From an uncultured Veillonellaceae bacterium (lineage in GTDB: Bacteria; Bacillota; Negativicutes; JARBTT01): 64,000 nt of DNA. The translations under genes and the position numbers were made by a program. Positions 37,909 to 58,346 of the stretch are shown here, in pieces. The stretch covers positions 1,216,001-1,280,000 of the forward strand of contig CAWDTA010000002.1 in the NCBI GenBank assembly GCA_963805085.1, in the 5' to 3' direction. Position 1 is the stretch's first letter, and every line of letters starts with the position of its first letter. Under the pieces are notes generated by a model, which saw only the letters and a list, made by a program, of their open reading frames with translations, did not search any database and was not told where the DNA came from.

Positions 37909-37946
37909 CGGCTAAAGTAAAGTTATTGTGATGAGGGGATAGTAGC

Positions 37947-38772: not shown

Positions 38773-39537
38773 CTAATTAGGTGCTGAATGGATTAGGGCA
38801 ACATTGTGTTTTTGAAAATAGTCTATATATTCTTTGTCGGGCTCTTTATCTGTAATAAAATAGTCAAGATTCTTCAATGGACAGAACGTCATAAGTGAAA
38901 CGGTTCCTGCTTTTGAAGAATCAACGAGTAATATTTTTGTACAATTTTTTTCGGTTAAATACCGCTTAATTTCACATTCGAGCGGCGAAGCATTTGTTGC
39001 ACCATTTTCAATTGAAAAGCCAGTCGAGGCGAGAAATGTTTTTGAAATGTTGTAGGTTTTTAAGCAGTTGATAACACTTGCACCGACAAAAGCGTTTGAC
39101 GGCCGATAGAGTGAACCACCTGTAGCAATGATGTTCATCTGATTGTAAGAGAACGCAGCATTGATGACATGAACGCTAGCAGTGATAATAGTTAGATTTT
39201 TTTTCTCTGCTAGATAAGGAATCATGTGCATTGTCGTTGTGCCAGAATCAATATAGATAACATCACCATCATCGACAAGGTTACTAGCCAACTTGGCAAT
39301 CTGTTTCTTTTGTGTCTGGTTTTTGATCTGACGCGCGGCAAATGGTTCGGGACTATCGTTTTGGTTGAGCATAATGCCACCGTAGACTTTCTTAATAGAC
39401 CCACGGTTTTCTAATTCCGCAATATCACGGCGAATAGTGTTTTTTGAGACTTCAAATATTTCGCAGAGTTTATTGATAGAAATGTTGTTTGATTCTTTTA
39501 AAATTTCTTCAATCTTATTTAAGCGATTTATTTTCAT
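38773..39537 (-). CDS. iolR: DeoR-family inositol catabolism repressor
   Basis: VSKNTIRRDI HTH and IDSGTT; divergent from the iol operon. Confidence 0.85.
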   Translation of the reverse strand: MKINRLNKIEEILKESNNISINKLCEIFEVSKNTIRRDIAELENRGSIKKVYGGIMLNQNDSPEPFAARQIKNQTQKKQIAKLASNLVDDGDVIYIDSGTTTMHMIPYLAEKKNLTIITASVHVINAAFSYNQMNIIATGGSLYRPSNAFVGASVINCLKTYNISKTFLASTGFSIENGATNASPLECEIKRYLTEKNCTKILLVDSSKAGTVSLMTFCPLKNLDYFITDKEPDKEYIDYFQKHNVALIHSAPN

Positions 39538-40015: not shown

Positions 40016-41167
40016 ATGAGTAACGTATTTTTAGTTCCATCAAAAATATTAACTGGATTTGGCGCAATTAACCAAATTGGAGAACACATTCAAGGTAGAG
40101 GAAAAAAAGCCTTGGTGGTTACTGATAAATTTATGGTACAGTTTGGTAATGTTGCCAAACTAACAGCAACTTTAGATGAATGTAACATCCAATACTATAT
40201 ATATGATGGTGTAAACGGTGAACCTACTGATAAAATGGTAGAAGAAGGCGTTCAGCTATACAAAGATCAAAAATGTGATTTACTGATAGCGCTTGGTGGT
40301 GGCAGTCCGATTGATACAGCGAAAGCAATTGGCTTCATGGCAAACAACACTGGCAAAATTAGCAGTTATATGAAAAAAGTCATTAATACAGAAGTTCCTT
40401 ACTTAGTAGCAATTCCAACAACAGCTGGAACTGGTTCAGAAGCTACTCAATTTACAATCATTGCGGATACAGAAAATAATGTAAAGATGCTACTTGCAGG
40501 TCCATCAATATTGCCAGCACTTGCAATCGTCGATCCAACCTTTACAATGACGGCGCCACCAAAGGTAACGGTAGCAACTGGTATAGATGCATTGACGCAT
40601 GCGATTGAAGCATATACTTCAAGAAAAGCGCAACCGTTATCTGATATCTTTGCATTAGCTGCAATCAAAAAAATTCACAAGAACTTACCAATCTGCTTTG
40701 CCGATGGTAAAAATGAAGAAGCAAGACTTCAAATGTCGCTTGGGGCGCATGAAGCTGGAATTGCATTTAACAACTCATCGATTACTATCGTTCATGGTAT
40801 GAGTAGACCAATTGGTGCACTTTTTCATATAGCACACGGTGTTAGTAATGCAGTACTTCTTACAGGTTGTATGGAATTTGCAATCAAAAAAAATACAGTA
40901 AGATTTGCTGAAATTGCAAAAATCATGGGTGTTACGGATGAGAATATGACGGATATGCAAGCCGCTCAGGCCATGGTAAAAGAGCTAGATCGCTTTTGCA
41001 AAGCTTTAGAAGTTCCAACACTTGAACAATTAGGCGTGAAGAAAGAAGACTTCTTCACACAACTGGATAAAATGGCGGATGATGCATTAGACAGTGGTAG
41101 TCCAAATAACACAATGAGGACACCAACAAAAGATGAAATTATCACAATATATAAAAAACTCTATTAA
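40016..41167 (+). CDS. Iron-containing alcohol dehydrogenase, putative malonate-semialdehyde reductase
   Basis: GGGSPID, PTTAGTGSE, DALTHAIEAY, HGMS and HG; first gene of the iol operon. Confidence 0.9.
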   Translation: MSNVFLVPSKILTGFGAINQIGEHIQGRGKKALVVTDKFMVQFGNVAKLTATLDECNIQYYIYDGVNGEPTDKMVEEGVQLYKDQKCDLLIALGGGSPIDTAKAIGFMANNTGKISSYMKKVINTEVPYLVAIPTTAGTGSEATQFTIIADTENNVKMLLAGPSILPALAIVDPTFTMTAPPKVTVATGIDALTHAIEAYTSRKAQPLSDIFALAAIKKIHKNLPICFADGKNEEARLQMSLGAHEAGIAFNNSSITIVHGMSRPIGALFHIAHGVSNAVLLTGCMEFAIKKNTVRFAEIAKIMGVTDENMTDMQAAQAMVKELDRFCKALEVPTLEQLGVKKEDFFTQLDKMADDALDSGSPNNTMRTPTKDEIITIYKKLY

Positions 41168-41196: not shown

Positions 41197-42042
41197 ATGC
41201 CAATCGTTAAATTAGATGAGCTTTTGCTCGGCGTCAAGGATAACTCGTATGCAATCGGCTCCTTCAATGTTTCAAATATGGAAATGATAATAGGGACGAT
41301 AAAGGCTGCGGAAGAATTGAATGTACCCGTCATCATCCAGATTGCAGAAGGCAGATTGAAATACTCTCCACTGCATACGCTGGGGCCAATGATGGTAGCA
41401 GCAGCAAAAGAAGCGAAAGTTCCAGTGACAGTGCATCTTGATCATGGTGGAACAATCGAAGTTATTCATCAAGCATTGGAAATCGGATTTACTTCGGTTA
41501 TGTTTGATGGTTCTCAATATCCATTGGACATAAATATTGAAAAGACAATGCAAGTAAAAGAACTTGCAGATAAATATAATGCGAGTGTTGAAGCGGAAAT
41601 CGGTAGAGTCGGTGGCTCTGAAGGTGATTATGCCAACGTTGATATCATGATTACAAGTGTTGATGAAGCAGTGAAATTTTACGAAGCAACTAAAGTTGAC
41701 GCTTTAGCAGTAGCAATCGGTACAGCACATGGTAATTACAAAGAAGTTCCTAAACTTCGTATCGACAGATTAAAAGAAATTGCAAAAGTAGTTGCTTGTC
41801 CACTTGTTTTACATGGTGGTACAGGACTTACTGAACAGGATTTTAGAAATAGCTTAGAAAATGGTATCAAGAAAATCAATATTGCAACAGCATCTTATGA
41901 CAGCGTAGCGGCAAATGTAAAGAAACTGGCAAAAGATAAACCAGATTTCAATTACTTTGATCATACGGATACTGTAATGATGGCGACATATGAAAATGTA
42001 AAAAAACACATGTTGATTTTTGGTTTGAAAGATAAAGCATAA
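41197..42042 (+). CDS. iolJ: Class II aldolase (6-phospho-5-dehydro-2-deoxy-D-gluconate aldolase)
   Basis: VHLDHG, SVMFDGS, IGTAHG, LVLHGGTG and KIN; iol context. Confidence 0.82.
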   Translation: MPIVKLDELLLGVKDNSYAIGSFNVSNMEMIIGTIKAAEELNVPVIIQIAEGRLKYSPLHTLGPMMVAAAKEAKVPVTVHLDHGGTIEVIHQALEIGFTSVMFDGSQYPLDINIEKTMQVKELADKYNASVEAEIGRVGGSEGDYANVDIMITSVDEAVKFYEATKVDALAVAIGTAHGNYKEVPKLRIDRLKEIAKVVACPLVLHGGTGLTEQDFRNSLENGIKKINIATASYDSVAANVKKLAKDKPDFNYFDHTDTVMMATYENVKKHMLIFGLKDKA

Positions 42043-42056
42043 GGAGAGAAGAGCAA

Positions 42057-43088
42057 ATGGCAGTGATTGAATTTGACAACACAAAACATTTGGACATTGT
42101 ATTAATCGGTCGGGCAGCAATTGATTTTAACCCAAATGAGTTGAACCGTACATTAGATAAGGTAAATACTTTTACGAAATATGTGGGCGGTTCACCAGCA
42201 AACATCGCGGTTGGCGTATCAAAGCTTGGTAAAAAAGCTGGTTTCATCGGAGCAGTATCTGATGATCAATTCGGCACATTTGTTGTGGATTACTTTAATG
42301 AAAGAGATATTGATACAACAGGTATCGTAAAAGCAAAGAATGGTGAAAACTTAGGTCTTACTTTTACTGAAATTTCTAGCCCAACGGACAGTCAAATTTT
42401 GATGTATCGTAATGGCGTAGCAGATTTACAAATATCTACAGATGATGTTTCAGAAAATTATATCAAAAACAGCAAAATCTTATTGGTGTCTGGTACTGCA
42501 TTAGCAGCGAGTCCATCAAGAGAAGCCTGCTTCCTTGCTATCAAATATGCAAAAAAGCATGGTGTAAAAGTTATTTTTGATATTGACTATCGTGCGTATA
42601 CTTGGAAATCAAAAGCTGAAATTGGTATTTATTATTCGTTAGTCGGACAAATGAGTGATATCATTATTGGCTCCAGAGAAGAGTTTGAGCTTACTGAAAT
42701 GCTCCCAGAGGGTAACCAAGTACCAAATTATGAAATTGCTGAAAAATATATGAGTTTTGGTAATAAAATTGTCATCATTAAACACGGTAAAAAAGGTTCG
42801 GTCGCCTATAGCGCAGATAAAAAATCTTTTAAGGTGCAATCATTTAATATTAAATTATTAAAATCATTCGGTGGCGGCGATGCTTACGCATCAGCATTTA
42901 TTTACGGTTTACTTGAAGGCTGGAACCTAGATAAAGCTTTAGAATATGCCACAGCACATGCAGCAATGGTGGTTGCAAGTCATAGTTGTTCAGATGCAAT
43001 GCAAAGTGCAGATTCAATTCACGCATTTATTGAAGCACATAAAGATGAAAAGGTTATTACTCCAATTGACTGGAGGGACGAACTATGA
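42057..43088 (+). CDS. iolC: 5-dehydro-2-deoxygluconokinase
   Basis: YVGGSPANIA, FDIDYR and FGGGDAY; PfkB family. Confidence 0.95.
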   Translation: MAVIEFDNTKHLDIVLIGRAAIDFNPNELNRTLDKVNTFTKYVGGSPANIAVGVSKLGKKAGFIGAVSDDQFGTFVVDYFNERDIDTTGIVKAKNGENLGLTFTEISSPTDSQILMYRNGVADLQISTDDVSENYIKNSKILLVSGTALAASPSREACFLAIKYAKKHGVKVIFDIDYRAYTWKSKAEIGIYYSLVGQMSDIIIGSREEFELTEMLPEGNQVPNYEIAEKYMSFGNKIVIIKHGKKGSVAYSADKKSFKVQSFNIKLLKSFGGGDAYASAFIYGLLEGWNLDKALEYATAHAAMVVASHSCSDAMQSADSIHAFIEAHKDEKVITPIDWRDEL

Positions 43089-43870
43089 AATTCGGTCGCT
43101 TAGGTGAATTGAAACATGGCTACAATGCAATGACGACTTGTGAAAGTGCAATGCTTATGGATATTGGTTATCAGGTCATGAATGCACAAGAAAAGTTAAC
43201 ATTTAAAGATGATAAAAAAGAAACTGCATTTGTTATTTTGACTGGTGAAGTAATGATTCATTGGCAAAATGAAACGGAAATGATGAAACGGAATTTACTT
43301 TTTGATGATAATCCATACTGCTTACATGTTCCAGCGGGAACTGAGGTTATTGTTCAAGCGAATAACCATGTAGAAGTATTAATACAAAAGACCGAAAATG
43401 AAAGAAACTTTGCTCCTAAGTTCTATAGACCAGAAGATTGTCAATGCGATCAATTTGGTGCTGGAGTATGGAATGGTACTGCTGAACGGACAGTACGGAC
43501 AATATTTGATTATACCAATGCCCCATATTCTAATATGGTAAATGGTGAAGTAATTAATCGTCCAGGTAGATGGTCAGGTTATATTCCACATACACATCCA
43601 CAACCAGAGGTCTATACTTATAAGTTTAATAAACCGCAAGGATTTGGCTGCTCATTTATTGGTGATGATGCTTATAAGATTTCGCATAACAGTTATTCAG
43701 CAATTCCTGGTGGTGATAGTCATCCGCAAGTTACAGCGCCAGGGTATGCAATGTGGTATAGTTGGATGATTCGGCATTTACCAAATGATCCGTGGATAAA
43801 AACAAGAACTGATGATGTAGAACATACGTGGTTATTAGAAAAAAATGTGAAAATATGGGAACCAAAATAA
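43085..43870 (+). CDS. iolB: 5-deoxy-glucuronate isomerase
   Basis: GEV, WSGYIPHTH, E.Y.Y and HPQVTAPGY; ATGA overlap with iolC. Confidence 0.92.
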   Translation: MKFGRLGELKHGYNAMTTCESAMLMDIGYQVMNAQEKLTFKDDKKETAFVILTGEVMIHWQNETEMMKRNLLFDDNPYCLHVPAGTEVIVQANNHVEVLIQKTENERNFAPKFYRPEDCQCDQFGAGVWNGTAERTVRTIFDYTNAPYSNMVNGEVINRPGRWSGYIPHTHPQPEVYTYKFNKPQGFGCSFIGDDAYKISHNSYSAIPGGDSHPQVTAPGYAMWYSWMIRHLPNDPWIKTRTDDVEHTWLLEKNVKIWEPK

Positions 43871-43896: not shown

Positions 43897-45828
43897 ATGG
43901 GCTTTGTAAGAATGACTGTTGCACAAGCAGTAGTTAGATTCCTAGACCAACAGTATATCGAAGTGGATGGCAAAAAAAATAAATTTGTCCGTGGTATTTT
44001 TACTATATTTGGTCATGGAAATGTTGTTGGTTTGGGACAGGCTTTAGAAGAACTAGAACACAAATTAGAAGTTTATCAAGGAAAAAATGAACAAGGTATG
44101 GCACATATTGCAACTGGTTTTGCAAAACAGAAGAATCGTCACCAAATCTATGCTTGTACGTCATCCGTAGGTCCTGGAGCGGCAAATATGATTACTGCTG
44201 CCGCGACTGCAACGGCAAATAATATCCCCCTTTTATTACTGCCAGGAGATGTTTTTGCAACCCGTCAGCCAGATCCTGTTTTGCAACAGATTGAGCAAAC
44301 AGATAGTTTGGCGATTTCAACCAATGATGCATTCCAAGCAGTAAGTAAATATTGGGACCGAGTGAGCCGTCCAGAGCAATTGATGACTGCAATGATTAAT
44401 GCTATGAGGGTATTGACCGATCAGGCAAACACTGGAGCAGTGACGATTGCGTTACCACAAGATGTACAAGGCGAAGCTTACGACTTTCCAGAGTATTTCT
44501 TTCAAGAGCGTGTTCACCGAATTGATCGGAGATTACCAGTACAAGCAGCGATTGAGGATGCGGTTAAGATAATTATGCGTAAGAAAAAGCCAATCATTAT
44601 TTGTGGTGGCGGACTGCGATATGCTGAAGCTGGTGAAGAATTAAAAAGCTTTTCTGAGGCCTTTCATATTCCTTATGGTGAGACGCAGGCTGGTAAGAGC
44701 GCGGTCGCTTACGATCATGCATATAACTTAGGTGGAATCGGTGTAACTGGTAACTCGGCGGCAAATGATATAGCGCATCAGGCCGATTTGGTTATTGGGA
44801 TTGGTACGAGATTTACCGATTTTACAACGGGATCAAAAGGTGTATTTGATGCACCGAATGTAGAATTTTTGACAATCAATGTTTCTGATTTTCATGCTAA
44901 TAAATTAGATGCAGTAAAAGTTGTTGCTGATGCAAAAGTTACCTTAAAAAAAATAGAAGAAGAACTGAAAAAAGTAAATTATAAAGCTGCTTATACTGAT
45001 GAAATTAAGTTTGCAAAAGAAAAATGGCAGCTAGAATTAGAACGTTTATATGATGTTAAGTATTGCCCTGATTTTGTACCAGAGGTATCTGGTGATTTTG
45101 ATAAAAGCAAAATGACTGAATATAGAGAATCTTTAAAAACCTGCTTGACCCAAACAGAAGTAATTGGTGTATTTGATCGATTGCTTGACGATGATGCCAT
45201 TGTGGTTGGTGCATCAGGAAGTTTACCTGGATGTTTACAACGTGTATGGCGTCCAAAAAAAGTTGGTGGTTACCATATGGAATACGGTTACTCTTGTATG
45301 GGGTATGAAGTTGCTGCATCTATTGGAGCAAAATTAGCAGAAGAGAATCGTGAAGTGTATGCTTTTGTTGGTGATGGCAGTTATCTCATGCTGCACACGG
45401 AATTGGTAACTAGCATTCAAGAAGGGATAAAAACCAATATTGTTTTACTCGACAATAGTGGTTTTGGCTGTATCAATAATTTACAAATGGGTAATGGTAT
45501 GGGCAGTTTCTATACAGAATTTAGAAAACGTTCAAAAGATGGAAAAGGCAATGGTGCTTTATTGCAAATTGATTTTGCTAAAAATGCCGAGGCTTATGGG
45601 GCAAAGACATATTCCATTCATACGTTAGAAGAATTAGAAGCAGCTATTATAGATGCAAAAAAACAAACGGTATCAACATTATTTGATATAAAGGTATTGC
45701 CAAAAACGATGACCCATGGGTATGGTGCAGATTGGAATGTTGGCTTAGCTGAAATTTCTAGCAATGCTAAGATTAATGCTGCATACCAAAACCGTAGAAG
45801 CTTCTTAGACAAAGCGAGAAAGTACTAA
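43897..45828 (+). CDS. iolD: 3D-(3,5/4)-trihydroxycyclohexane-1,2-dione acylhydrolase
   Basis: [33 protein letters not shown] and the ThDP motif GDGSY. Confidence 0.97.
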
Positions 45829-45872: not shown

Positions 45873-46898
45873 ATGTTGAAAATCGGTATTATTGGTGCAG
45901 GTCGTATTGGTAAGGTTCATGGAGAAAGCATTGCAAAATATGTAAAAAATGCCACGGTAAAAGCAATTGCTGATCCATTTCTAAATGATGAAACAAAAGA
46001 ATGGGCCAAGTCTATGGGCATTGAGCATACGTATACGGATTATAAAAAAATTATGAATGATTCTGAAATTGATGCGGTGCTTATTTGTGCTTCAACAGAT
46101 ATGCATTCTCCACTTTCTATAGAAGCAATTCAAGCGGGTAAACATGTTTTTTGTGAAAAACCAATTGATCATGATGTAGAAAAAATCAAAGAGGTTTTAA
46201 ATGTTGTTAAAGCTTCTGATCGGAAATACCAAGTTGGTTTTAACCGCCGTTTTGACCATAATTTTAGAGCTGCACAAGAAGCGGTTGCTGCAGGTAAGAT
46301 TGGTAAACAACAAATTATTAAAATTACTTCTCGTGATCCCGAAGCACCACCAATCAGCTATGTAAAAGTTTCTGGCGGAATGTTCTTAGATATGACAATT
46401 CATGATTTTGATATGGTTAGATTTTTATCTGGCAGTGAAGTTGAAGAAGTATACACTGTAGGCGGAGTTACGGTTGATCCAGCAATTGGTGAAGCGGGTG
46501 ACGTTGACACTGCAATTATCAGCTTAAAACTTGCCAATGGTGCTATGGCTGTGATTGATAACTGTCGTCAAGCTGTATATGGTTATGACCAACGTGCTGA
46601 AGTATTTGGAACAGAGGGAGCAATTCAAATTAGCAATGATAGTGCCTCCAATGCAATTCTTAGTAATAGAGATGGAGTTACTGCTGAAAAACCATTGTAT
46701 TTCTTCTTAGAACGTTATATGCGTGCTTATGCTGATGAAATTGGTGCTTTTGTTGATGCGATTGTTGAAGATAAAGAAGTTATGGTAAATGCAGAGGATG
46801 GTTTAGAACCAGTCATTATCGGCCTAGCTGCTAAAAAATCATTACTTGAAAATAGACCAGTTAAGACTGCTGAAATTAAGCAAGCTTTTGGTTTATAA
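45873..46898 (+). CDS. iolG: myo-Inositol 2-dehydrogenase
   Basis: GAGRIG, CEKP, GFNRRFD, SRDP, DMTIHDFD and YGYDQR. Confidence 0.95.
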   Translation: MLKIGIIGAGRIGKVHGESIAKYVKNATVKAIADPFLNDETKEWAKSMGIEHTYTDYKKIMNDSEIDAVLICASTDMHSPLSIEAIQAGKHVFCEKPIDHDVEKIKEVLNVVKASDRKYQVGFNRRFDHNFRAAQEAVAAGKIGKQQIIKITSRDPEAPPISYVKVSGGMFLDMTIHDFDMVRFLSGSEVEEVYTVGGVTVDPAIGEAGDVDTAIISLKLANGAMAVIDNCRQAVYGYDQRAEVFGTEGAIQISNDSASNAILSNRDGVTAEKPLYFFLERYMRAYADEIGAFVDAIVEDKEVMVNAEDGLEPVIIGLAAKKSLLENRPVKTAEIKQAFGL

Positions 46899-47116: not shown

Positions 47117-48013
47117 ATGTTAAATATAAATGATATTCATTTGGGGATTGCACCGATTGCTTGGACAAATGATGATATGCCTGACTTAGGCAAAGAAAAT
47201 ACGTTTGAACAATGTATCAGTGAAATGGCTTTGGCTGGATTTACTGGCTGCGAAGTAGGAAATAAATATCCTCGGAATACTAGTGTCTTAAGTAAAGCTT
47301 TGAAAATACGTGGACTAAAAATTGCGAGTGCGTGGTTTAGTTCTTTTTTAACGACAAAACCGTTGCAAGAAACAATAGATGCGTTTATTGAACATCGTGA
47401 TTTTTTATGTGCAATGGGCGCTAAAGTAGTTGTAGTATCTGAACAAGGACACAGTGTTCAAGGGCAAGTAAAAACGCCGATTTTTGCCAAGAAACCATAC
47501 TTTACAGAAGATGAATGGAATAAACTTGCCACAGGGTTAAATAAACTTGGCGAGCTCGCAAAAGAAAAAGACATGAATGTTGTTTACCATCATCATATGG
47601 GAACTGGAGTACAAACAGCGGTAGAAATTGATAAACTAATGGAAATGACAGATCCTGCGTTAGTCTCTTTATTATTTGATAGTGGACATTTAGTTTATTC
47701 AGGAGAAAATCATTTAGCCGTGTTGAGAAAACATGTAGATCGTATCAAACATGTGCATTTAAAAGATATTCGAATCGAAAAAGTACAAGAGGTAAAAGAA
47801 AAACAGTTAAGCTTTCTAGAAGGTGTTAGATTAGGTACATTTACAGTCCCTGGTGATGGTTCAATTGATTTTATGCCAATTTTCGAAATATTAGCAAAAG
47901 CGAGATATCAAGGTTGGTTTGTAGTTGAAGCAGAACAAGATCCTTCCAAAGCAAATCCATTTGAATATGCTCAAAAAGCAAGATGTTATATTAAGAAAAC
48001 AGCAAATTTATAA
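47117..48013 (+). CDS. iolE: myo-Inosose-2 dehydratase
   Basis: [27 protein letters not shown] and VEAEQDP. Confidence 0.97.
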
Positions 48014-48125: not shown

Positions 48126-49502
48126 GTGAAAATAATGAATATTTTAAAATCGTTTTTGACAGGAGCAGACAAATCACGCATTACTGACCCTGCAGCTATA
48201 AAACGTATGTTTACAACCGCTCGCTGGCAGGTAATGACCTCGATGATTATTGGCTATGGTATGTATTATGTAGTAAAAATGACCTTGGGTGTAGCGAAAA
48301 AGCCTATGATGGAAGCCGGATTTACTGCTACAGAATTAGGGCAAATTGGTGCAGGATTACTTATTGCGTATGCTCTTGGTAAATTTGTTCATGGTTTCCT
48401 AGGTGACCGCATTAATGTTAAAAAGCTAGTGCCTACGGGCTTACTTGGCTGTGCTATTGTAAATATTATTTTAGGATTTACCACATCTTTTTATGTATTT
48501 TTGATCCTTTGGTTTATTAACGGCTGGTTTCAGTCTATGGGTTCTGCGCCATGTATCGTTTCAATAACGCAGTGGTTTTCTAAAAAAGAAGTAGCAACGC
48601 AATATGGTGTATTCAGTATTGCACATTATCTTGGTGAAGGCGCAACTTATATTATTTCGGCTTGGTTGATTGTACATTATGGCTGGCAGTCGGCATTCTG
48701 GTTCCCAGGAATTTTGTGCGTAGTAATGGCTTACCTAATGTATAAATTTATGTGGGATCGCCCTCAGGCATATGGTTTACCTACCGCTAATGAATTTAAA
48801 GGTGAAGTAGAAGAGGTTAAGAAAGAAAAAGTTAAGACTACGAAGGAAGCACAATTAGAGGTTATTAAAAACCCATTTGTTTGGTTAATTGCTTTAAGTG
48901 CCGCTTTCATGGGTATTGCACGTTATTCTTTGAGCAGTTGGGGCGTAATTTTCCTTCAAGAAAGTAAGATGTATAGTTTAGTGGCCGCTGGCAGTATTAT
49001 GGCTCTCAGTCCGCTCATGGGTGGATTAGGTTCTTTTCTTTCAGGTTATATTTCTGATAAAATTTTCAAATCACACCATGCTTTAACTACAATTTTCTTT
49101 GGACTAGTTATGCTTGGCGGACTTGTAGGTTTTTGCTATACACCTCCCGGAAATCAACTGCTGGATATGATCTGGATTTCAGTCTTTGGCTTTGGGCTTG
49201 GCGTTATCCTATGCTTTGTTGGTGGAATGCTGGCAGTCGATCTTTGCTCGCAAAAGGCCGCTGGGGCAGCAATGGGAACAGTCGGCTTGTTAGCTTATGC
49301 CGGTGCAGCTTTGCAGGATATTGCAAACGGCTGGCTGATGGATATCAGTAAAATTATGGTAGATGGTAAAGCAGTATATAATTTTGATGTGATTAATATG
49401 TTCTGGATTGGATCAGTTGCTATTATGATAGTCTTAATTGTTCCTTGTTTATGGGCCAAGAAGAAAAATACTCCAGAATCTACTACTGATGTTAATGGCT
49501 AA
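48126..49502 (+). CDS. MFS organophosphate:Pi antiporter (GlpT/UhpT/OPA family)
   Basis: GYGMYY, YALGKF, NGWFQSMG, WFSKKE, AHYLG, DRPQAYGLP and GYISDK; 12 TM. Confidence 0.9.
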   Translation: MKIMNILKSFLTGADKSRITDPAAIKRMFTTARWQVMTSMIIGYGMYYVVKMTLGVAKKPMMEAGFTATELGQIGAGLLIAYALGKFVHGFLGDRINVKKLVPTGLLGCAIVNIILGFTTSFYVFLILWFINGWFQSMGSAPCIVSITQWFSKKEVATQYGVFSIAHYLGEGATYIISAWLIVHYGWQSAFWFPGILCVVMAYLMYKFMWDRPQAYGLPTANEFKGEVEEVKKEKVKTTKEAQLEVIKNPFVWLIALSAAFMGIARYSLSSWGVIFLQESKMYSLVAAGSIMALSPLMGGLGSFLSGYISDKIFKSHHALTTIFFGLVMLGGLVGFCYTPPGNQLLDMIWISVFGFGLGVILCFVGGMLAVDLCSQKAAGAAMGTVGLLAYAGAALQDIANGWLMDISKIMVDGKAVYNFDVINMFWIGSVAIMIVLIVPCLWAKKKNTPESTTDVNG

Positions 49503-49541
49503 TAAGCCCCGTAATCTATCGTAAATATTTGTGCTGATGCA

Positions 49542-49581
49542 GATGTAATAAATTACAGAATATTCTGTAATTTATTACATC
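49542..49581. repeat. Perfect 40-bp palindrome
   Basis: GATGTAATAAATTACAGAAT|ATTCTGTAATTTATTACATC, with no spacer. Confidence 0.9.
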
Positions 49582-49695
49582 ATAAGCATTTAATTAGAAA
49601 TAAGTTCGATAAGCATATTTATTAAATTAAATATTTTTCGTTACTTAACAGTGACAGGGCAGAGGGTTAAATCAAACACATAAGGAGCATATGTT

Positions 49696-50412
49696 ATGGC
49701 AAAATTTATTGCAGATTTACACACACATACAATTTCATGCAGGCATGGTTTTAGTACGGTTACGGAAATTATCAAAGCCGCAGCTGATATTGGATTAGAA
49801 GCAGTTGGCCTCACCGAACATGGACCAGGTTATCCTGGCAGTGTTGGCGATGCATACTTTAATACTTACAGGGATATACCGTCAGAAATGTTTGGCATCA
49901 CTGTTCTAAAAGGTTGTGAGGTTAACATGATGGACTTTTATGGTAAGGTAGATTTGGAACAGTCCCGCATGGCTAAATTGGATATTGTTATTGCCAGTTG
50001 CCACAAAGAATGCACCCCTATAGGCTCTATAGAGGAGAATACAAAAATGTATTTAGGGGCTATTAGGAATCCTTATGTCGACATTATCGGTCATCCTGAT
50101 GCACCTCTTTATCCTATTGACATAGAAAAAGTCGTAAAGGCAGCGGTTAAATATGGGGTCGCCCTGGAAGTTAATAATAGTTCACCAGCGGCGCGTCCCA
50201 GCAGTGAAAAATTATGTGCTGAGATCATCCGCTTAGCAAAAAAATTTGGAGCAAAGCTGGCTGTGGGTTCGGATGCACATTATCATGTAGTTGTTGGCAA
50301 GTTTGATTATGCATATAAAATGATTACAGAAGGTACCTTTCCACTTGATCAAGTTATAAATTCTTCAAAAGATAATTTAATGGCTCATCTTCGCCGGAAT
50401 CGAAAACTTTAA
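49696..50412 (+). CDS. PHP-family phosphatase (YcdX-like), cytoplasmic
   Basis: DLHTHT, TEHGP, GCE, GHPD, EVNNSS and GSDAH; no signal peptide. Confidence 0.9.
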   Translation: MAKFIADLHTHTISCRHGFSTVTEIIKAAADIGLEAVGLTEHGPGYPGSVGDAYFNTYRDIPSEMFGITVLKGCEVNMMDFYGKVDLEQSRMAKLDIVIASCHKECTPIGSIEENTKMYLGAIRNPYVDIIGHPDAPLYPIDIEKVVKAAVKYGVALEVNNSSPAARPSSEKLCAEIIRLAKKFGAKLAVGSDAHYHVVVGKFDYAYKMITEGTFPLDQVINSSKDNLMAHLRRNRKL

Positions 50413-50476: not shown

Positions 50477-51430
50477 TTGAATTTAATGAAAAAAGCTTTA
50501 TGGTTTAAGTCTATTTTATCCATTATGATGGCAGTTGCTTTACTTTTCCAATTTACTTTATTTGCATCAGCCGCTGAATCAAATAAAGTAGTTTTAAAAA
50601 TTGACAGGGCCGATGCCGATCAACTGCCAAGAAATTATAGAACGACTGATGATACTTTTCGTGCTACAAAAGATGGACAGTATCCTTCACGCGTTGGTTT
50701 GAAGGATATTCATGCCTCCGCCAGCAGTATTTTTTCAGAAAAAGAATTTGAACAAGTAATATCAAGGGCACACGGCAATGTAATTGTTGTAGACTTACGC
50801 CAGGAATCGCACGGATATCTTAATGGTATGGCTGTTAGCTGGTTTGGTGCTAATAATTGGGGAAATGACGGAAAAGATTTGGAACAAGTTAAAGTTATTG
50901 AAAAAGGCTTACTTGATAAGGCTTTAACAGAAACACCAACAACTATTTATCATTTTGATGATGATAAAAACGTAACCACCGAGTCTTTTCAGATTAATGT
51001 TGAAAACGCACTTACTGAAGAAGAAATGATAAAATCTCATGGGGCAGGCTATTTTCGGTTAGCTTGTTCAGATCATTTCCGTCCCGAAGATGCTGATGTT
51101 GATCGTTTTCTTGAGTTTTATAAATTGCTTCCAAAGGATGCATGGCTACACTTTCATTGCTTTGCGGGTGAAGGACGTACAACTATTTTTATGAATATGT
51201 ATGATATTTTAAAAAATGCAAAAAAAGTAAGCTATGATGATATTGCATTACGACAAGGGTTAATTGGACCAGTTGATATTCGAAATGTACCGGCTTCTAA
51301 AATGAATTGGAAACGTAAAGCCTATATTGAACGTGCTCAATTTGTTAAACATTTTTATGATTTTGTAAAACAAAGTCCGGATAATTTGCCAATGACTTGG
51401 TCGAAATGGGCTAGGCAACATAGTTATTAA
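50477..51430 (+). CDS. Secreted protein-tyrosine-phosphatase-like (cysteine) phytase
   Basis: Sec signal ending ASA|AES, LPRNYR, VDLRQESHG, SDH acid loop and P-loop WLHFHCFAGEGRTT (CX5R), as in Selenomonas PhyA-type enzymes. Confidence 0.92.
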   Translation: MNLMKKALWFKSILSIMMAVALLFQFTLFASAAESNKVVLKIDRADADQLPRNYRTTDDTFRATKDGQYPSRVGLKDIHASASSIFSEKEFEQVISRAHGNVIVVDLRQESHGYLNGMAVSWFGANNWGNDGKDLEQVKVIEKGLLDKALTETPTTIYHFDDDKNVTTESFQINVENALTEEEMIKSHGAGYFRLACSDHFRPEDADVDRFLEFYKLLPKDAWLHFHCFAGEGRTTIFMNMYDILKNAKKVSYDDIALRQGLIGPVDIRNVPASKMNWKRKAYIERAQFVKHFYDFVKQSPDNLPMTWSKWARQHSY

Positions 51431-51813: not shown

Positions 51814-53814
51814 ATGTGGAAGAAAATGAATATGATGTCAAAGATGTTACTAGCTTTATTATTGCCAATGTTTCTTATTGTTGCGGGAATTTGTACGTAT
51901 TCTTATTTTGAGTCTCGTAATATCTTAAATAAGCAAATCATGCAGACCGTTACTTATATGGCGGAAAGTCAAAGTAATACGGTATACTATACATTGAAAG
52001 AAAAAGAAACGTTACTTACAATGTGTGCTGAGATTTTAGGACAAAAAGAGATGTCCACATCAGAGCGTATTGCTTTATATAAACAAGTGAAAGCAAATTT
52101 TACTGGAATTAAATCAGTATTTGATGGTTATGAAGATAAAACATGTAGTGATTCTCAAGGGGTAACAGAAAAAGAAAAGCCAGCAGGATATGATCCAAAA
52201 AGTCGTATTTGGTATAAGATTGCAAATGAATCAAAAGGTGTTGGCTATACACCTGCTTTTGAGACGTCTAACAAATCACTATCAGTAGATTTAAGTAAAA
52301 AAATTATTCGCAATGGACAAATGGTAGGTGTTGTGGGGGTCGATATTGATATTAGCCAAATACGTGAATTAGCACAAAATTTTAAAATTGGTGAAACCGG
52401 ATATGTAGCAATTTTAGATGAAAAAGGCAATTTCATTTCTCATCCTAAATTTGGTTTGACGGATAATATTAATGAGGTGGAAAATGGAAATCTAAAAAGC
52501 TATGCGGGTTCTTTGATGAATAAGCAGGCAAATGTACAAAGTGGAATTTTAAATGGTGAACAAGTATTAATGTCTGCATCACCAATTGGTAATACCGGAT
52601 GGACTTTTGTGATATTTGCGCCAGAAAAAGAGTTGTTTAGGGATGTAAATGAATTGGCCTTAAAGTCGATAACTTCCAGTCTTATTGGATTGATTTTAAT
52701 TGGTTTTATCATTATCGTTATTACAATTAATTTTGTGAAACATATAAAATTAATTGACAAAATGGCGGGAGAAATAGCAGCTGGTGATTTGCAGATTGAT
52801 CATGATTATAAAACAGATGAATCTAGTAAAGACGAAATTGATAAATTAATTCATAGTTTCCAACGAATGAAAATAAAATTACGTTCCTTAATCAGTAATG
52901 TTAGTACTTCAGCGATACAAGTTACACAGTCAACAGGACAGTTCTATGAAAGTTCCCAACAGTCAGCGGAAGCTGCAGATAGTGTTGCTTCTTCGATAAC
53001 ACATTTAGTTGGAGCAACTGAAAGTCAGGTAAAAGCCGTTAATGAAGTAGTAACAATAGTGGGCAAAATGTCGGAGAACATACAAAATGTTGCTGGCAGT
53101 GCAAATAGTATGGCAGGTATTGCAGACGAAGCCGCTGGAGCAACTATTTCAGGAAAACAATCAGTTGATGAGGCTGTTGCACAAATGGATAATGTCAGCA
53201 AAGCCGCTAATCGGGCGAAACTTGCATCGACTGATATGGAAAAAAGTTCAGATCAAATCGGGCAAATTGTTGAAATGATTTCTAATATTGCGGGACAAAC
53301 CAATTTACTTGCATTAAATGCGGCAATTGAGGCGGCAAGAGCCGGTAATCAAGGTCGTGGGTTTGCTGTAGTAGCGGAAGAGGTTCGGAAATTAGCTGAA
53401 CAATCTGATCATGCAGCCAGACAAATTACGGAATTAGTACAGAAAAATCATGAAAATATTGATCATATGGTTACATCAATTGAAGATGCAATTAATGATG
53501 TAAATCAGGGAAGTACACGTGTTTATGCCGCAGGCGAAGAATTTAAAAAAATCTTGGATATGGTAAATAATTTAGTGAATCGTGTAAAGCAAATATCTTC
53601 ATCGCTTGATGAGATTTCTAGCGGCAGCCAAAGCATTGTTGTTGCAGTAAACGATGTAGATGAGGTATGTAAAGGAACAGCAACTGAATTTGAAAGTGTA
53701 TCAGCGGCTGTTGAAGAACAGTCAGCATCAATGCAAGAAATTGCATCATCATGTTCTGCACTAAGTAATTTAGCGGAAAAATTAGATTGTGAAGTTCAAA
53801 AATTTAAATTATAG
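51814..53814 (+). CDS. dCache_1-HAMP methyl-accepting chemotaxis protein
   Basis: TM1, [23 protein letters not shown]...HP, TM2, DEI HAMP motif and the MCP signature. Confidence 0.93.
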
Positions 53815-53895: not shown

Positions 53896-56817
53896 ATGAT
53901 GAGCAAAGAAACTATATTGAATGGACCATATCTATTGGCTCCGACTACGAATAGTATGACCATAGCCTGGGAGACTCGGTTTCAGGGGCAGACAAATGTA
54001 TTTTATGGGGTAAATGAGCAGTTTGATCAGCAAGCAGAAGTACAAGTGCAAAGGGCAACGCCCTATAAAGATAATCCTGATGGTAATTTTATCTCTACGA
54101 CAATTATAAACAAACTGGATGCAGACACAAAATATAGCTATAAAATTAAACTTGGAAATGAGCAAGAAGTTTGTGGCGAGTTTAAGACACTGGGGGATAA
54201 TCCAGATATAAAGCGAATTTTTACGATAAGTGACTCCCATCTGTTTAATACAAACAAGCAATTTGCTAATATAGTTTTAGCTAATAAGCCTGATTTTATT
54301 ATTCATATTGGAGATATCTCATTTGGAACCGGATATCAACGTGAACAGTATGAGGATAATTGGTTTAAGAAAATTCCAGAAGTAATAAAAACAATTCCTG
54401 TTATACATGTACCTGGTAATCATGATGATGGTCCATTTTATAATGACTTTTTTACTTTTCCTCAATCAAAGACTTACCAGTGTGATGAAGCAAAACGAAG
54501 TTTTTCATTTGACTATGGGAAAATTCATTTTTTAATACTTGATAGCAACCCTTGGGGATTATTTGAGATGAATGCAATTAATTCAGGATTGTCTGCAGAT
54601 AGTGAAACGAAGAAGATAATTTATAATACATTAGAATGGGCAATTGATGATTTAAAATCAAATCAAGCAAAAAATGCTGACTGGCGGGTAATCGTACTCC
54701 ATCACCCGTATACAGATGAATTTAATAATAAGTATATTGTTCCTATCGCTGAAAAGTATAATGTTAATTTAGTGATTAGCGGGCATCTACATTATTATGT
54801 TAAAAGTGTTTCTATTAACCCAGAGATTGGTGCTAAAACAGTTTATTTAACCCAAGGAAGTGCACAAGATGGAGAACATGAATTAAATCTAGGGCAGTTT
54901 GATAAGCGGTTATTAGTAGAATTTCCAGAAGTTGTTGCACTTGGAAAAGGTAATTATGGGGAGCTAGATATAACAAAAAGTAACCTGGCTTATAAAAGCT
55001 ATGGATTTAATAAGGATGACGATAAAGAGATTTTGGTTGATACAGTTGTTTTAACAAAGGAAAAACCTGAAATAATTATCTCTGATGTTCAAATTGATAC
55101 GATCGATAAATTTGGACATATTCGAATTACTGGTAAAGCCAAAAATGCAGGTAGTGGTTTTGAAGCTGTAATAGTTAAGGTCATCGATAATGGTGCAGAA
55201 CATGTCATTAATTTATTTGGTAATAAGGGAAAAGAGCGGATTATTGCTTTGAATTGTAATGAGGAAAAAGATTTTATTGCGCTTTATCAAACCACAGATC
55301 CTGGACAGCATGAATTGTATGTAGAAGGTATTACTAAAAGCATTACAGTTTATGAACCAGAGCAACTGACTTTTGAACACATGAAGCTTAAAGTTGGTAA
55401 TGAAAAAAATACTAACCTGCTAATTGCAAGTGTTGAAATTACAAATAATTTAAAAAACGAAGTGCAAGTACCTGTTGATCTGATTATCAACAAAGAAGTT
55501 GTTCAAAGAAAAATGACATCATTAGCGGGTTATGAGAAAAAAAATATAGAGTATTATCATAAGTTATCAAGAGGTGGAAGTTATAAAGTTAAGATAGCCA
55601 ATTTAGAAGAAAAAGAGATCAGAATACAAGGCCCTGTACGAATAATACCAAGGGTTAAGGATCTATCTGGTAATGGCAATGATGCTCTTTTACATGGCAC
55701 GCCAAGGGTAATAAAAGAGAAAGATAGAGTAATCGTACATTTAGATCAATATAGTGATTATTTGGAAATTCCAGATAGTGACAGTTTGCGCGTTAGCGAT
55801 GGCTTTACCGGCATGGTTTGGGCAAATATTAGTAGATTAGCTCAGGGGGCAGAGATGTCACATAATCCGCTGATGGTTAAAGGAAAGTCAATTGGTTGGG
55901 GGGCGACATATTTATTGCGTATGGCAGTTGAGAGAGCTGGTAGTTTAAAATGGGGAACTTGTCATGATATTACCGAATATGCCTGGCAAGGTGGTAATGC
56001 AAGTTTAAATGAATGGGTCCATTATACCTCTTCTTTTGATAAAAAAAGTGGTGGCACTTCTTATTGCAATACGAATAAAGTTGCAGAGATCTCAGGCATC
56101 GGTGCTGATGCTAAATTAAGAAATTGGGAGGATGAACCATTGTTTGTTGGCTATTCATATATTGGGCATGTAATTGAAGAAATTGGCAGACCTAAATATT
56201 TTACGCATTTACCAGCGCAAATTAGTCAGGTCAGATTTTACAGAACGAAATTATCCAGTCAAGAAAATCAATTAATTTATAAAAAGCCAGCTGAAATTGG
56301 ACCCAAAAGTGATGAATTAGCAGTCTGGCTGGACTTTAATAATATTATTACGACCGGGACTCATATTACGGAGTGGAGACGCCCGGCAATCTTTGAACCT
56401 TCATATAAAACCGAAAAAAAATATTGGGATTTTAATCAGTTAAAAGTTACCGCTGTTATACCAGTTGAAACAACATTAGAAGCTACAGTTGAAGTTTCTG
56501 ATGATGGTGATTTAGTCAAGGATTCGAAGAAAATTTGTATACATGATGGAGTGTGCTGTGTTGATCTAAGTAATTTACAGCAAGCACAGTATATTAGAAT
56601 TATGACAAAATTTGTAGCTGAAGTTGGTGATAAGGGAATTTTTACTCCTGAATTGTGGGAATATCAGGTTACTGCATCAACAGAAAGTATTTTTACAGAG
56701 ATGATATGGGCAACACGCGATGATTGGGAAAAGGGTCGAATGACCGATGCAGTTGGTTTCGAACCAGTTGACAGGCTCAAAACTTTTCATGAATATACAG
56801 ATGTTATTCATGGCTAG
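53896..56817 (+). CDS. Large multidomain metallophosphoesterase (PAP-like FN3 + calcineurin-like MPP + Ig/CARDB-like + LamG-like)
   Basis: GPYL...SMTIAWET, DSH, GDISF, GNHD, HHP and GHLH. The C-terminal part has DLSGNGND...YLEIP...WVHY...ISQVRFY. No signal peptide. Confidence 0.8.
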   Translation: MMSKETILNGPYLLAPTTNSMTIAWETRFQGQTNVFYGVNEQFDQQAEVQVQRATPYKDNPDGNFISTTIINKLDADTKYSYKIKLGNEQEVCGEFKTLGDNPDIKRIFTISDSHLFNTNKQFANIVLANKPDFIIHIGDISFGTGYQREQYEDNWFKKIPEVIKTIPVIHVPGNHDDGPFYNDFFTFPQSKTYQCDEAKRSFSFDYGKIHFLILDSNPWGLFEMNAINSGLSADSETKKIIYNTLEWAIDDLKSNQAKNADWRVIVLHHPYTDEFNNKYIVPIAEKYNVNLVISGHLHYYVKSVSINPEIGAKTVYLTQGSAQDGEHELNLGQFDKRLLVEFPEVVALGKGNYGELDITKSNLAYKSYGFNKDDDKEILVDTVVLTKEKPEIIISDVQIDTIDKFGHIRITGKAKNAGSGFEAVIVKVIDNGAEHVINLFGNKGKERIIALNCNEEKDFIALYQTTDPGQHELYVEGITKSITVYEPEQLTFEHMKLKVGNEKNTNLLIASVEITNNLKNEVQVPVDLIINKEVVQRKMTSLAGYEKKNIEYYHKLSRGGSYKVKIANLEEKEIRIQGPVRIIPRVKDLSGNGNDALLHGTPRVIKEKDRVIVHLDQYSDYLEIPDSDSLRVSDGFTGMVWANISRLAQGAEMSHNPLMVKGKSIGWGATYLLRMAVERAGSLKWGTCHDITEYAWQGGNASLNEWVHYTSSFDKKSGGTSYCNTNKVAEISGIGADAKLRNWEDEPLFVGYSYIGHVIEEIGRPKYFTHLPAQISQVRFYRTKLSSQENQLIYKKPAEIGPKSDELAVWLDFNNIITTGTHITEWRRPAIFEPSYKTEKKYWDFNQLKVTAVIPVETTLEATVEVSDDGDLVKDSKKICIHDGVCCVDLSNLQQAQYIRIMTKFVAEVGDKGIFTPELWEYQVTASTESIFTEMIWATRDDWEKGRMTDAVGFEPVDRLKTFHEYTDVIHG

Positions 56818-56930: not shown

Positions 56931-58346
56931 GTGGATCTTATCATGATTTTTATTAGTTTAGTCGGTTTAATGTATTTGGCTTATCGTGGATATTCCATTA
57001 TATTAATCGCACCTGCCTTTGCTGTGATAGCGGCTATTGGTAGTGGCTATGCAGCGATGCCGATTTATAGTGAGCTTTATATGACAAAAGCAGCAGAATA
57101 TATTAAAAATTATTATCCGGTCTTTTTATTGGGAGCAGTCTTTGCCAAGGTTATGGAATCTGGTGGACTTGCAGCGGCAGTTGCGAGTAAAATCGTACAA
57201 ACGCTTGGTAAAGAAAGAGCGATTTTAGCCGTGCTCTTGGGCTGCGGGGCTTTGACATACGGAGGGCTAAGTGTATTTGTAGTTGCATTTGTGATGTACC
57301 CGTTTTCTGCTATTTTATTTAAGCAAGCGAAAATTCCCAAACGATTACTACCAGCAACCTTATGGATGGGGATACTTACCTATGCGATGATTGCCATTCC
57401 GGGGACTCCTCAGATTCAAAATATTATTCCAACGGCTTTTTTTGGTACGACGACTTGGGCGGGAATTAGTACAGGTCTTTTTGCTACATTATTATATTTT
57501 GTTATTGCATGGGCATGGATCAGTTATCGACATAAGAAATTAGCAAGTCAGGGCGAAGGTTATGGAAATTATATTTTAAACGAACCAGAGGATGTAAAAG
57601 AAGATCTACCACATTGGAGCTTGGCGGCGTTACCACTGGTTCTCGTTGTTGTGATTAATTTGATTGTGAGCAATCCTTTTACTTGGCAATGGGCATATCA
57701 TTGGGATAACCATAGTTTAGAGAATTTTACAACGCTAAAATTGTCACTTTTAGCATCTAGTGTCGATCGTGTACAAGCGATATGGTCGATTAATGTTGCG
57801 CTTATTATAAGCAGCATTGTTGCGGCATTCATTGGGCGAAAACGTTTAAAAACGCAAGGAGGCGTACTTTCACCGATTAATATGGGAGCTGTATCTTCTA
57901 CTTCAGCAGTTTTGAATGTAGCATCTGGCTACGCATTTGGTTGTGTTATCGCTATCTTACCAGGTTTTCAAATCATCAAAGAAATGCTGCTGAATTTAAG
58001 TGTTGGTGATGGGCCATTACTTTCTGCAATCATTACGACGAATATTATGACAGGAATTACGGGATCGGCATCGGGGGGGTTAACCATAGCGTTGGGGATG
58101 CTTGGAAATGAATGGCTTGCTTGGGCAAACAGCATGCAGATGTCACCGGAGATTTTACATCGAATTGTTTGTATTGCTTCTGAAGGCATTGATACAGTAC
58201 CGCATTCTGGAGCGTTAGTTACCCTTTTTGCAGTCTGTGGATTAACTCATAAAGATTCTTATTATGATGTTTTTATACTAACAATACTAAAAACGACAAT
58301 TGCTTTTATTTGTTTGGCTTTTTATAGCATAACAGGACTCGTTTAA
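56931..58346 (+). CDS. GntP-family H+/organic acid permease
   Basis: LTYGGLSVFV, PGTPQIQNIIP, GITGSASGG and DTVPHSGA. Confidence 0.9.
   Translation: MDLIMIFISLVGLMYLAYRGYSIILIAPAFAVIAAIGSGYAAMPIYSELYMTKAAEYIKNYYPVFLLGAVFAKVMESGGLAAAVASKIVQTLGKERAILAVLLGCGALTYGGLSVFVVAFVMYPFSAILFKQAKIPKRLLPATLWMGILTYAMIAIPGTPQIQNIIPTAFFGTTTWAGISTGLFATLLYFVIAWAWISYRHKKLASQGEGYGNYILNEPEDVKEDLPHWSLAALPLVLVVVINLIVSNPFTWQWAYHWDNHSLENFTTLKLSLLASSVDRVQAIWSINVALIISSIVAAFIGRKRLKTQGGVLSPINMGAVSSTSAVLNVASGYAFGCVIAILPGFQIIKEMLLNLSVGDGPLLSAIITTNIMTGITGSASGGLTIALGMLGNEWLAWANSMQMSPEILHRIVCIASEGIDTVPHSGALVTLFAVCGLTHKDSYYDVFILTILKTTIAFICLAFYSITGLV

Follow-up and report, generated by a model that had tools for sequence, protein, structure and literature searches.

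In the 64,000-nucleotide stretch of contig CAWDTA010000002.1 from an uncultured Veillonellaceae bacterium analysed here (positions 1,216,001 to 1,280,000; hereafter, the window), a gene for a transporter of the major facilitator superfamily (MFS) follows iolE in a myo-inositol catabolism cluster, and genes for a PHP-domain phosphatase, a protein tyrosine phosphatase (PTP)-like phytase and a large metallophosphoesterase, here called PAP992, lie behind it. We propose that this MFS is a specialised offshoot of the GlpT-like organophosphate:phosphate antiporters and, with a probability of roughly 0.6, that it imports lower inositol phosphates, probably myo-inositol 2-phosphate (Ins(2)P), in exchange for inorganic phosphate (Pi), with dephosphorylation in the cytoplasm. 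In such a scheme, one or more secreted PTP-like phytases would strip phytate outside the inner membrane, and the MFS would take the remaining inositol phosphate, most probably Ins(2)P as the end product of these phytases, from the periplasm while giving out cytoplasmic Pi. PAP992 and, where present, the YcdX-like PHP protein would then remove the last phosphate(s) in the cytoplasm, releasing myo-inositol for IolG-E-D-B-C-J and Pi that would drive further exchange. The main argument that the transported molecule is still phosphorylated lies in where the enzymes act: two phosphoesterases predicted to be cytoplasmic are encoded directly behind a transporter of phosphate-ester type, and the phytases are exported. 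The substrate and its monophosphate state, the antiport mode and the division of labour between the phosphatases are what we infer from the comparisons that follow.

The MFS open reading frame (ORF) spans 48126..49502 (+ strand, GTG start, 458 amino acids), and its true start is probably the ATG at 48135, since a GAAGGAG ribosome-binding site lies 8 nt upstream and an identical database copy (P0001) is 455 amino acids long; we therefore place the gene at 48135..49502. The protein matches Pfam MFS_1 over residues 41-396, and its best NCBIfam matches are all models of the OPA family, whose members we take to be organophosphate:Pi antiporters (TC 2.A.1.4): 253 bits for TIGR00881 (cut-off 408), 237 for GlpT TIGR00712 (633), 217 for UhpC (564), 147 for PgtP (750) and 133 for UhpT (497). 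Its top PDB matches are GlpT and SLC37A4, the closest solved relative being E. coli GlpT (1pw4; E 9e-57, near full-length match). By these matches, the MFS belongs to a divergent OPA subfamily with no named equivalog. A UhpC-like sensor role was ruled out, as no UhpA/UhpB-type genes lie nearby. The original prediction, made from the letters of the window, had placed an OPA-family MFS after iolE and a cytoplasmic PHP phosphatase (49696..50412) behind it, and had found no IolT/IolF-type sugar porter or ABC transporter in the cluster; both statements were borne out. No sugar porter (PF00083) or ABC transporter is encoded within 38.7-58.3 kb, where the only transporters are the MFS and a GntP-like permease (56931-58346). 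The MFS itself has no PF00083 match, the genome-wide PF00083 scan giving none at C2:1264135-1265499, and the three best sugar-porter matches of the genome adjoin genes for xylulokinase, L-arabinose isomerase (araA) and a NiaR-like regulator, not iol genes.

The wider family to which the MFS belongs appears to handle phosphate esters. A homologue search returned 415 relatives, either unnamed or with generic labels such as MFS or UhpC-like, and a scan of species-representative genomes gave at least 80 loci with family members. Their neighbours within 6 kb were labelled by tblastn, with E <= 1e-8 and a coverage of 40% or more as limits; the queries were the window proteins together with glycerophosphodiester phosphodiesterase (GDPD), GlpD and HAD proteins encoded at the loci themselves. 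Neighbouring ORFs were also scanned with Pfam; the context labels depend on the tblastn thresholds, and ORF calls in GC-rich loci are crude. Among the loci listed, relatives at 38-47% identity adjoin genes for GDPD (with DUF4996), for GlpD and HAD, or for TonB receptors, Metallophos proteins, GDPD and Na/Pi cotransporters, and this flanking by GDPD, GlpD and HAD or Pi-scavenging genes at about 40% identity is what points to phosphate esters, with uptake of glycerol-phosphate type and for phosphate scavenging. Marinimicrobia-type loci (L023, L024, L027) have Na/Pi cotransporters and choice-of-anchor proteins, with no Pfam phytase among the scanned neighbour ORFs. At identities of at least 53% (L001-L012 and L033, among the loci listed) the picture is different: PAP992 is found at 11 of 13 loci, a PTP-phytase at 7, PHP at 3 and iol genes at 10. 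A tree of the family (quick IQ-TREE search, LG+G4) was built from 78 rows, with E. coli GlpT as outgroup to the window MFS, its own-genome paralogue of 40% identity and 75 loci; five truncated loci were left out. All 14 rows with phytase, PAP992 or PHP neighbours among the loci listed form one clade in it with an SH-aLRT of 100, and the stem of this phytase-linked clade measures about 0.5 substitutions per site in an earlier tree of 69 rows. The paralogue (C3:44607-45920; L081:6590-7936) groups with GlpD/HAD-linked transporters and adjoins genes for a DUF89-type damage-control phosphatase and an Lrp-type regulator.

The family has a second clade, set apart from the phytase-linked one (L061, L063, L064, L065 and L073; SH-aLRT 99 in the 69-row tree). 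Its members adjoin genes for a short PfkB kinase and for iolG-like dehydrogenases, and at L061 the iol set is complete. These five loci gave no phytase match, and the clade may represent another route for phosphorylated inositols.

The gene order around the phytase-linked clade was followed in an independent survey of 401 sampled Negativicutes genomes, in which the surroundings of 27 foreign clade loci were fetched and labelled. Clade members (61-100% identity) occur in 28 of these genomes, the window's included, and in 14 of 110 genera, and none was found in one same-genus genome (84% complete). In 27 of the 28 genomes (26/27 without the window), PAP992 is encoded downstream in the same orientation; the sole miss, L145, is a contig of 4.5 kb with 707 nt left beyond the MFS gene. 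PHP sits between the MFS and PAP992 in 8/28 loci; the fetched stretch holds a PTP-phytase in 19/28 and iol genes in 21/28. As the order recurs across genomes, it does not arise by chance; since these genomes are kin, the counts are not independent events. Beyond the Negativicutes, a Schaalia genome (Actinomycetota, L010) has the MFS, PAP992 and iol genes, and a Victivallales metagenome-assembled genome (MAG; L011) carries iolB-D-E-MFS-PHP-iolG with no phytase. At several loci of Selenomonadaceae and Veillonellaceae, a divergent AraC regulator goes with the MFS-PAP992(-phytase) unit alone, and the tblastn queries used gave no GDPD or GlpD match at any of 34 clade loci. These comparisons lend strong support to one part of the original prediction, namely that a phosphorylated inositol would enter through an OPA-type transporter, lose its phosphate inside the cell and pass to IolG, but not to its choice of PHP as the main partner of the transporter: PAP992 is the constant partner and PHP an accessory phosphatase of the module. 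The strongest context, that is the PTP-like phytase with its signal peptide directly after PHP, was absent from that prediction, and so was PAP992.

The phytase gene (50477..51430, + strand) encodes a protein with a Pfam PF14566 match (96.9 bits against a cut-off of 27), the active-site loop HCFAGEGRT, which follows the HCX5R(S/T) pattern, and an N-terminus that, judged by eye, is a signal peptide, with a typical hydrophobic leader ending in ASA. It matches the Mitsuokella multacida phytase PhyAmm (3f41) at E 3e-157 and the Selenomonas ruminantium phytase PhyAsr (1u24) at E 3e-56, and one further PTP-phytase is encoded elsewhere in the window's genome. PTP-like phytases reportedly end at Ins(2)P, as work by Puhl et al. 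in 2007 is said to have shown. When grown on phytate, Mitsuokella jalaludinii builds up both Ins(2)P and inositol (PMC7618129).

The gene for PAP992 (53896..56817, + strand) codes for a protein with a PAP N-domain, a Metallophos domain and a Laminin_G_3 domain (Pfam). Its ORF is 992 amino acids long, and the start most likely lies at 53896, after a GGGGGAG site, which gives 973 amino acids. Over residues 20-376 the protein can be aligned with the purple acid phosphatases (PAPs) of plants (E of about 2e-7), with matches to the motifs GD, GNH(D/E), VxxH and GHxH. Six of seven metal ligands are aligned with those of the kidney-bean enzyme; the chromophoric, Fe-binding Tyr of GDxxY is Phe (GDISF), so that the seven ligands of a purple acid phosphatase are not complete. 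Judged by these motifs, PAP992 is a PAP-like metallophosphoesterase and not a true purple enzyme. All 13 PAP992 homologues compared start at most 12 residues before a conserved (L/I)NGPYLL motif, hence a signal peptide is lacking in 13/13.

The PHP protein (49696..50412, + strand, 238 amino acids) is YcdX-like: it matches 1m65 at E 1e-36 over its full length, scores 255.2 bits on NCBIfam PRK09248 (cut-off 264) and keeps every His, Asp and Glu aligned to the YcdX motifs (H-x-H, H17, H42, E75, H103, H133, D193 and H195), which presumably are the metal ligands of the trinuclear YcdX site. Its N-terminus, MAKFIADLHTHT, is already the metal-binding H-x-H motif, beginning at residue 9, hence the protein has no room for a signal peptide. 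To our knowledge, YcdX has no assigned physiological substrate. YcdX-like genes are common, with a match at E <= 1e-30 in 161 of the 401 Negativicutes genomes, and a housekeeping-type paralogue of 45% identity is encoded in the window's genome. All seven Negativicutes orthologues with at least 60% identity (60-75%) directly follow a clade MFS. Three matches at 56% identity lie elsewhere among unrelated neighbours, in genomes that carry the MFS-PAP992 locus on other contigs, and one at 50% identity (L126) lies in a module of a 462-residue MFS and a PI-PLC-X-like protein.

The latter belongs to a second type of Selenomonadaceae module, composed of AraC, a 462-amino-acid MFS, a PI-PLC-X-like protein of about 270 amino acids, sometimes PHP (50% identity), and a PAP992-like enzyme (L126:1588-8562; L003:17731-21051; L006:14390-20613). 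Its composition suggests the uptake of another inositol phospho-compound, and, since the L126 module joins both with a PI-PLC-X-like protein, the PHP and PAP992 types are there again tied to an enzyme that produces inositol phosphates.

We then considered the residues of the transporter, in GlpT numbering, in 34 clade sequences and 64 non-clade relatives. Alignments to 1pw4 and K-12 GlpT agree exactly with the comparison made by eye in the original prediction: in the window MFS, R45 is replaced by K48 and K46 by M49, while K80, H165 and R269 are kept as K83, H164 and R263. The latter three are invariant in 34/34 clade members, and Y38, Y42 and Y393 in the 14 clade rows compared. The R45-K46 change loses its diagnostic value in the larger sample, as R45 is kept in 27/34 clade members and is K in the other 7 (the window and six relatives), and the K46 position is L, M or Q throughout the wider family, GDPD/GlpD-linked members included; because the change is family-wide, K46->M is uninformative. 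The GlpT salt-bridge residues K46/D274/E299 are likewise absent family-wide, with M, S and P in the window. K45 always occurs with Y76 (7 sequences; residues 48 and 79 of the window MFS), R45 occurs with I76 in 26 sequences, and R45 with Y76 is found only in the Victivallales locus L011. The covariation is of interest given that E. coli GlpT loses both binding and transport through R45K, whereas K80A, R269K and K46L merely diminish binding (PMC4598623). The two pairs look like alternative, perhaps compensatory, arrangements of the phosphate subsite. A Lys (K240) holds one relay position in human G6PT (PMC12552596).

On the side of the organic moiety, the clade departs from its relatives as a whole: Y266G, N166Y and R321H occur in 34/34 members, I303G and G155A in 33/34 and W161F in 32/34, whereas nearly all non-clade relatives (n=64) have Y266, N166, R321, I/L303, G155 and W161, and Y266 and R321 are kept in 20/20 members with a GDPD/GlpD context. 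In the structure of human G6PT with glucose 6-phosphate bound, the phosphate subsite comprises Y60, K64 and W118 and the glucose subsite W138, S142, Y233, I346 and H366 (PMC12552596). When these were mapped by hand through sequence alignment, clade-specific positions fell on or beside the glucose-subsite residues Y233, S142 and I346: Y233 aligns with window A256 (a clade-specific S->A change), one helical turn from G260 (GlpT Y266); S142 aligns with window S161, between F160 and I162 and one turn away from Y165; and I346 aligns with window I358, beside V357. Given the clade residue pattern and the mapping to G6PT and GlpT, the phosphate side of the pocket seems to be kept and the organic-moiety side remodelled, two large-to-Gly changes included.

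Several points weigh against uptake of a lower inositol phosphate by Pi exchange. Every OPA model scores the MFS below its curated cut-off; the window MFS carries at R45 the very replacement that abolishes binding and transport in GlpT (PMC4598623); and the proposed pocket is mapped by sequence alignment to G6PT and GlpT. Diesterases occur among the Metallophos enzymes, so PAP992 may cleave a bond of another kind. The lack of an inositol monophosphatase (IMPase, PF00459) match in the genome speaks for the scheme, as does the lack of a sugar porter in an inositol context, but with an assembly completeness of 83% and a contamination of 6% the IMPase gene may have been missed. Finally, the fetched stretches hold no phytase in 9/28 and no iol gene in 7/28 cases, some of them stopping at contig ends, and linkage to iol genes alone does not specify a substrate, since the second clade adjoins iolG-like and PfkB genes without phytases.

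The alternative that fares best, although we regard it as unlikely, is that the MFS imports inositol tris- to hexakisphosphates (InsP3-InsP6), with PAP992 as an intracellular phytase and the secreted PTP enzymes in a minor or different role. Some plant purple acid phosphatases are phytases, and PAP992 is a large, plant-PAP-related, cytoplasmic protein that is always present; the pocket appears enlarged by Y266G and I303G, and 9 of the 28 loci have no phytase nearby. Yet the clade has gained no extra positive charges at cavity-aligned positions, R45->K weakens the relay in 7/34 members, and secreted phytase genes are present at 19/28 loci. Moreover, the known OPA substrates are monophosphates, namely glycerol 3-phosphate (G3P), hexose 6-phosphates, phosphoenolpyruvate (PEP) and phosphoglycerates (PGA) (PMC9306846).

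Less probable still is that the MFS works independently of phosphate as a plain permease for free myo-inositol in the iol operon, the phosphatases serving otherwise. The position directly after iolE, where IolT/IolF-type genes sit elsewhere, would fit such a permease, as would a genome with no sugar porter in an inositol context, the replacements R45->K and R321H, which weaken canonical OPA features, and the phytase-free locus L011. It is difficult, however, to reconcile it with the invariance of K80, H165 and R269 (34/34) and of Y38, Y42 and Y393 (14/14), or with the MFS-PAP992 pair being detached from iol genes in many loci under its own AraC regulator; at every assessable locus a gene for a cytoplasmic phosphoesterase follows the MFS, which makes no sense for a phosphate-free substrate, and Megamonas MAGs are reported to have iolT (PMC13617567), the clade being present in Megamonas as well (P0061). 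About as improbable is an ordinary scavenger of G3P or organophosphates in general, or an importer of glycerophosphoinositol, placed there for phosphate scavenging and not for carbon supply: the wider family is tied to GDPD/GlpD and Pi-scavenging genes, the best solved relative is GlpT, and the module of the 462-residue MFS with PI-PLC-X-like, PHP and PAP992-like proteins suggests that phosphodiester inositol compounds are used too, but the 34 clade loci gave no GDPD or GlpD match with the tblastn queries used, the clade stands on a long stem of its own and is altered at organic-moiety positions such as Y266 (kept in 20/20 GDPD/GlpD-linked members), and the second family member (40% identity, C3:44607) could serve G3P.

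The inositol genes lie on the + strand upstream of the MFS, in a run that extends from about 40.0 to 58.3 kb in the order Fe-dependent alcohol dehydrogenase (Fe-ADH), iolJCBDGE, MFS, PHP, PTP-like phytase, dCache chemoreceptor, PAP992 and GntP-like permease. Genes iolC (42057-43088), iolD (43897-45828), iolG (45873-46898) and iolE (47117-48013) score above the cut-offs of their NCBIfam equivalog models, and this iolG is the sole one above cut-off genome-wide; iolJ (41197-42042) is a further gene of myo-inositol catabolism, and iolB (43085-43870) reaches 91 bits, below its cut-off of 205, with a Pfam KduI/IolB match. A DeoR-family regulator (38773..39537, - strand; Pfam HTH_DeoR and DeoRC) is divergent from the operon in an IolR-like position, and homologues of 61-64% identity adjoin the same Fe-ADH, iolJ and iolC genes in L008, L127, L129-L132 and L143. 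The first gene of the operon (40016..41167, + strand; Pfam Fe-ADH) has counterparts at the head of iol genes in L003, L008, L117-L119, L132 and L136. The operon that it heads has no iolA, and many relatives show the same arrangement. Possibly, the Fe-ADH is a malonic-semialdehyde reductase; an Fe-ADH without iolA fits an anaerobic branch in which malonic semialdehyde is reduced, of the kind reported for M. jalaludinii, which produces 3-hydroxypropionate (PMC7618129). Just upstream of the regulator (37132-38621), the window encodes a PHP histidinol-phosphatase of HisJ type, which exceeds the cut-off of its equivalog model, and a diguanylate cyclase with a GGDEF domain; neither has an evident tie to the locus.

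The spacer between the MFS and PHP genes is 193 bp long in the window against 20-81 bp in relatives, and holds a perfect 40-nt palindrome (49542..49581) that is absent there. The palindrome has an 18-bp AT-rich stem with no T-run after it, and the region 49500-49700 gives a fold z-score of -5.2 against shuffles; the palindrome may act as a terminator, a processing site or an operator. A repeated element was ruled out, as it is present in a single copy in the genome. A simple scan gave 77 promoter-like sites against 79 expected and 13 terminator-like sites against 10 expected and did not call the palindrome; with observed numbers so near to expectation, neither count is above chance.

Between the phytase and PAP992 genes lies a gene for a methyl-accepting chemotaxis protein with a dCache sensor (51814..53814, + strand; Pfam), homologues of which (52-54% identity) are found at the same loci in L116, L117, L119 and L136; it may sense phytate-derived compounds. 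Behind PAP992 follows the GntP-like permease (56931..58346, + strand, 471 amino acids), which has a 0.99 Atlas feature score to GntP-like clusters and no Pfam or NCBIfam family match. Two Selenomonas species (L003/L141 and L006/L144) encode a homologue of 70% identity between iolE and the MFS gene, and the permease possibly belongs to the pathway, carrying an acid product or another solute; 3-hydroxypropionate is a speculative candidate for such an acid end product. Since the GntP family carries carboxylates, this protein, which is unrelated to GlpP, is unlikely to be the inositol permease. In several relatives, PAP992 is followed by a protein of about 390 amino acids with a twin-arginine signal, weak HD-domain (YhaM-like) similarity and no Pfam family (L001:9655-10824, L117:14232-15398, L002:18234-19418), and a 46% homologue is encoded on another contig of the window's genome (C3:75697-76776).

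Seeds store their organic phosphorus mainly as phytate, which in guts, rumen and soils is a large source of carbon and phosphorus, and published bacterial phytate schemes pass from an extracellular or periplasmic phytase straight to the uptake of free inositol. The action of PTP-like phytases ends at the axial 2-phosphate, and cultures accumulate Ins(2)P; an importer together with cytoplasmic phosphatases would close a gap in these schemes. The literature matches that we found, as far as their titles and the beginnings of their abstracts go, concern plants, animals or imaging, and none describes a bacterial inositol-phosphate or phytate importer. The OPA substrates named in a review on organic phosphorus are G3P, hexose-6-phosphates and PEP/2-PGA/3-PGA (PMC9306846); a large survey of iol clusters left non-homologous transporters outside the cluster (PMC9430895), and the remark on a 'lack of specific transporters' in another review is about host-gut absorption (PMC12482443). 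It is tempting to go further, although we hold this more tentatively than the import itself and would not give it even odds, and to see in the clade an inositol-phosphate:phosphate antiporter, the first of its kind, whose physiological substrate would be Ins(2)P. It would be central to a conserved locus for phytate utilisation in Negativicutes from the gut, the rumen and the environment, laterally shared with Actinomycetota and Victivallales. In this locus, two hitherto unassigned kinds of cytoplasmic enzyme, a PAP-like/LamG protein of 970 amino acids and a YcdX-type PHP protein, would replace IMPase, and the dCache chemoreceptor may steer cells toward compounds derived from phytate. An importer of inositol phosphate with its cytoplasmic phosphatases would add a new substrate class to the OPA family, place YcdX-type PHP proteins and a large family of PAP-like proteins in a physiological context for the first time, and make the MFS clade together with PAP992 a gene marker for phytate and inositol-phosphate consumers in metagenomes; the exchange against Pi would presumably also make uptake energetically cheap for fermenters.

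Compared with known systems, the window MFS resembles E. coli GlpT in keeping K80, H165, R269, Y38, Y42 and Y393, and Pi exchange is presumed for it, but it shares only about 30% identity with GlpT (by eye), falls below the equivalog cut-off and differs in R45->K and the clade-specific pocket changes; its neighbours are a phytase, phosphatases and iol genes, unlike glpQ and glpABC at the E. coli locus. UhpT and human G6PT (SLC37A4) are OPA relatives that carry a six-carbon polyol phosphate (PDB matches at E 2e-34) and have a phosphate relay K-R-R/K (PMC12552596) that the window MFS, with K in place of R45, may share, yet they are more distant than GlpT, their sugar-subsite residues are not shared, and no UhpABC-type regulation accompanies the MFS. 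Unlike YcdX itself, the PHP orthologue group (at least 60% identity) is found only directly after the phytase-linked MFS (7/7), and the reaction proposed for PHP and PAP992 is that of SuhB/IMPase, the folds being unrelated. The window phytase is a close homologue of PhyAmm and PhyAsr but has a single domain, which scores 335 bits against the N-terminal repeat of PhyAmm and 193 against the C-terminal one. A physiological parallel is M. jalaludinii, likewise a Negativicute with a periplasmic phytase and iol genes, in which Ins(2)P and inositol occur as intermediates (PMC7618129); its published scheme, in the accessible part, invokes the inositol transporter MJ_0380, which is induced 8-fold on phytate relative to inositol, and proposes no inositol-phosphate importer or cytoplasmic phosphatase, whereas in the window these two functions would be provided by the MFS and by PAP992 with PHP.

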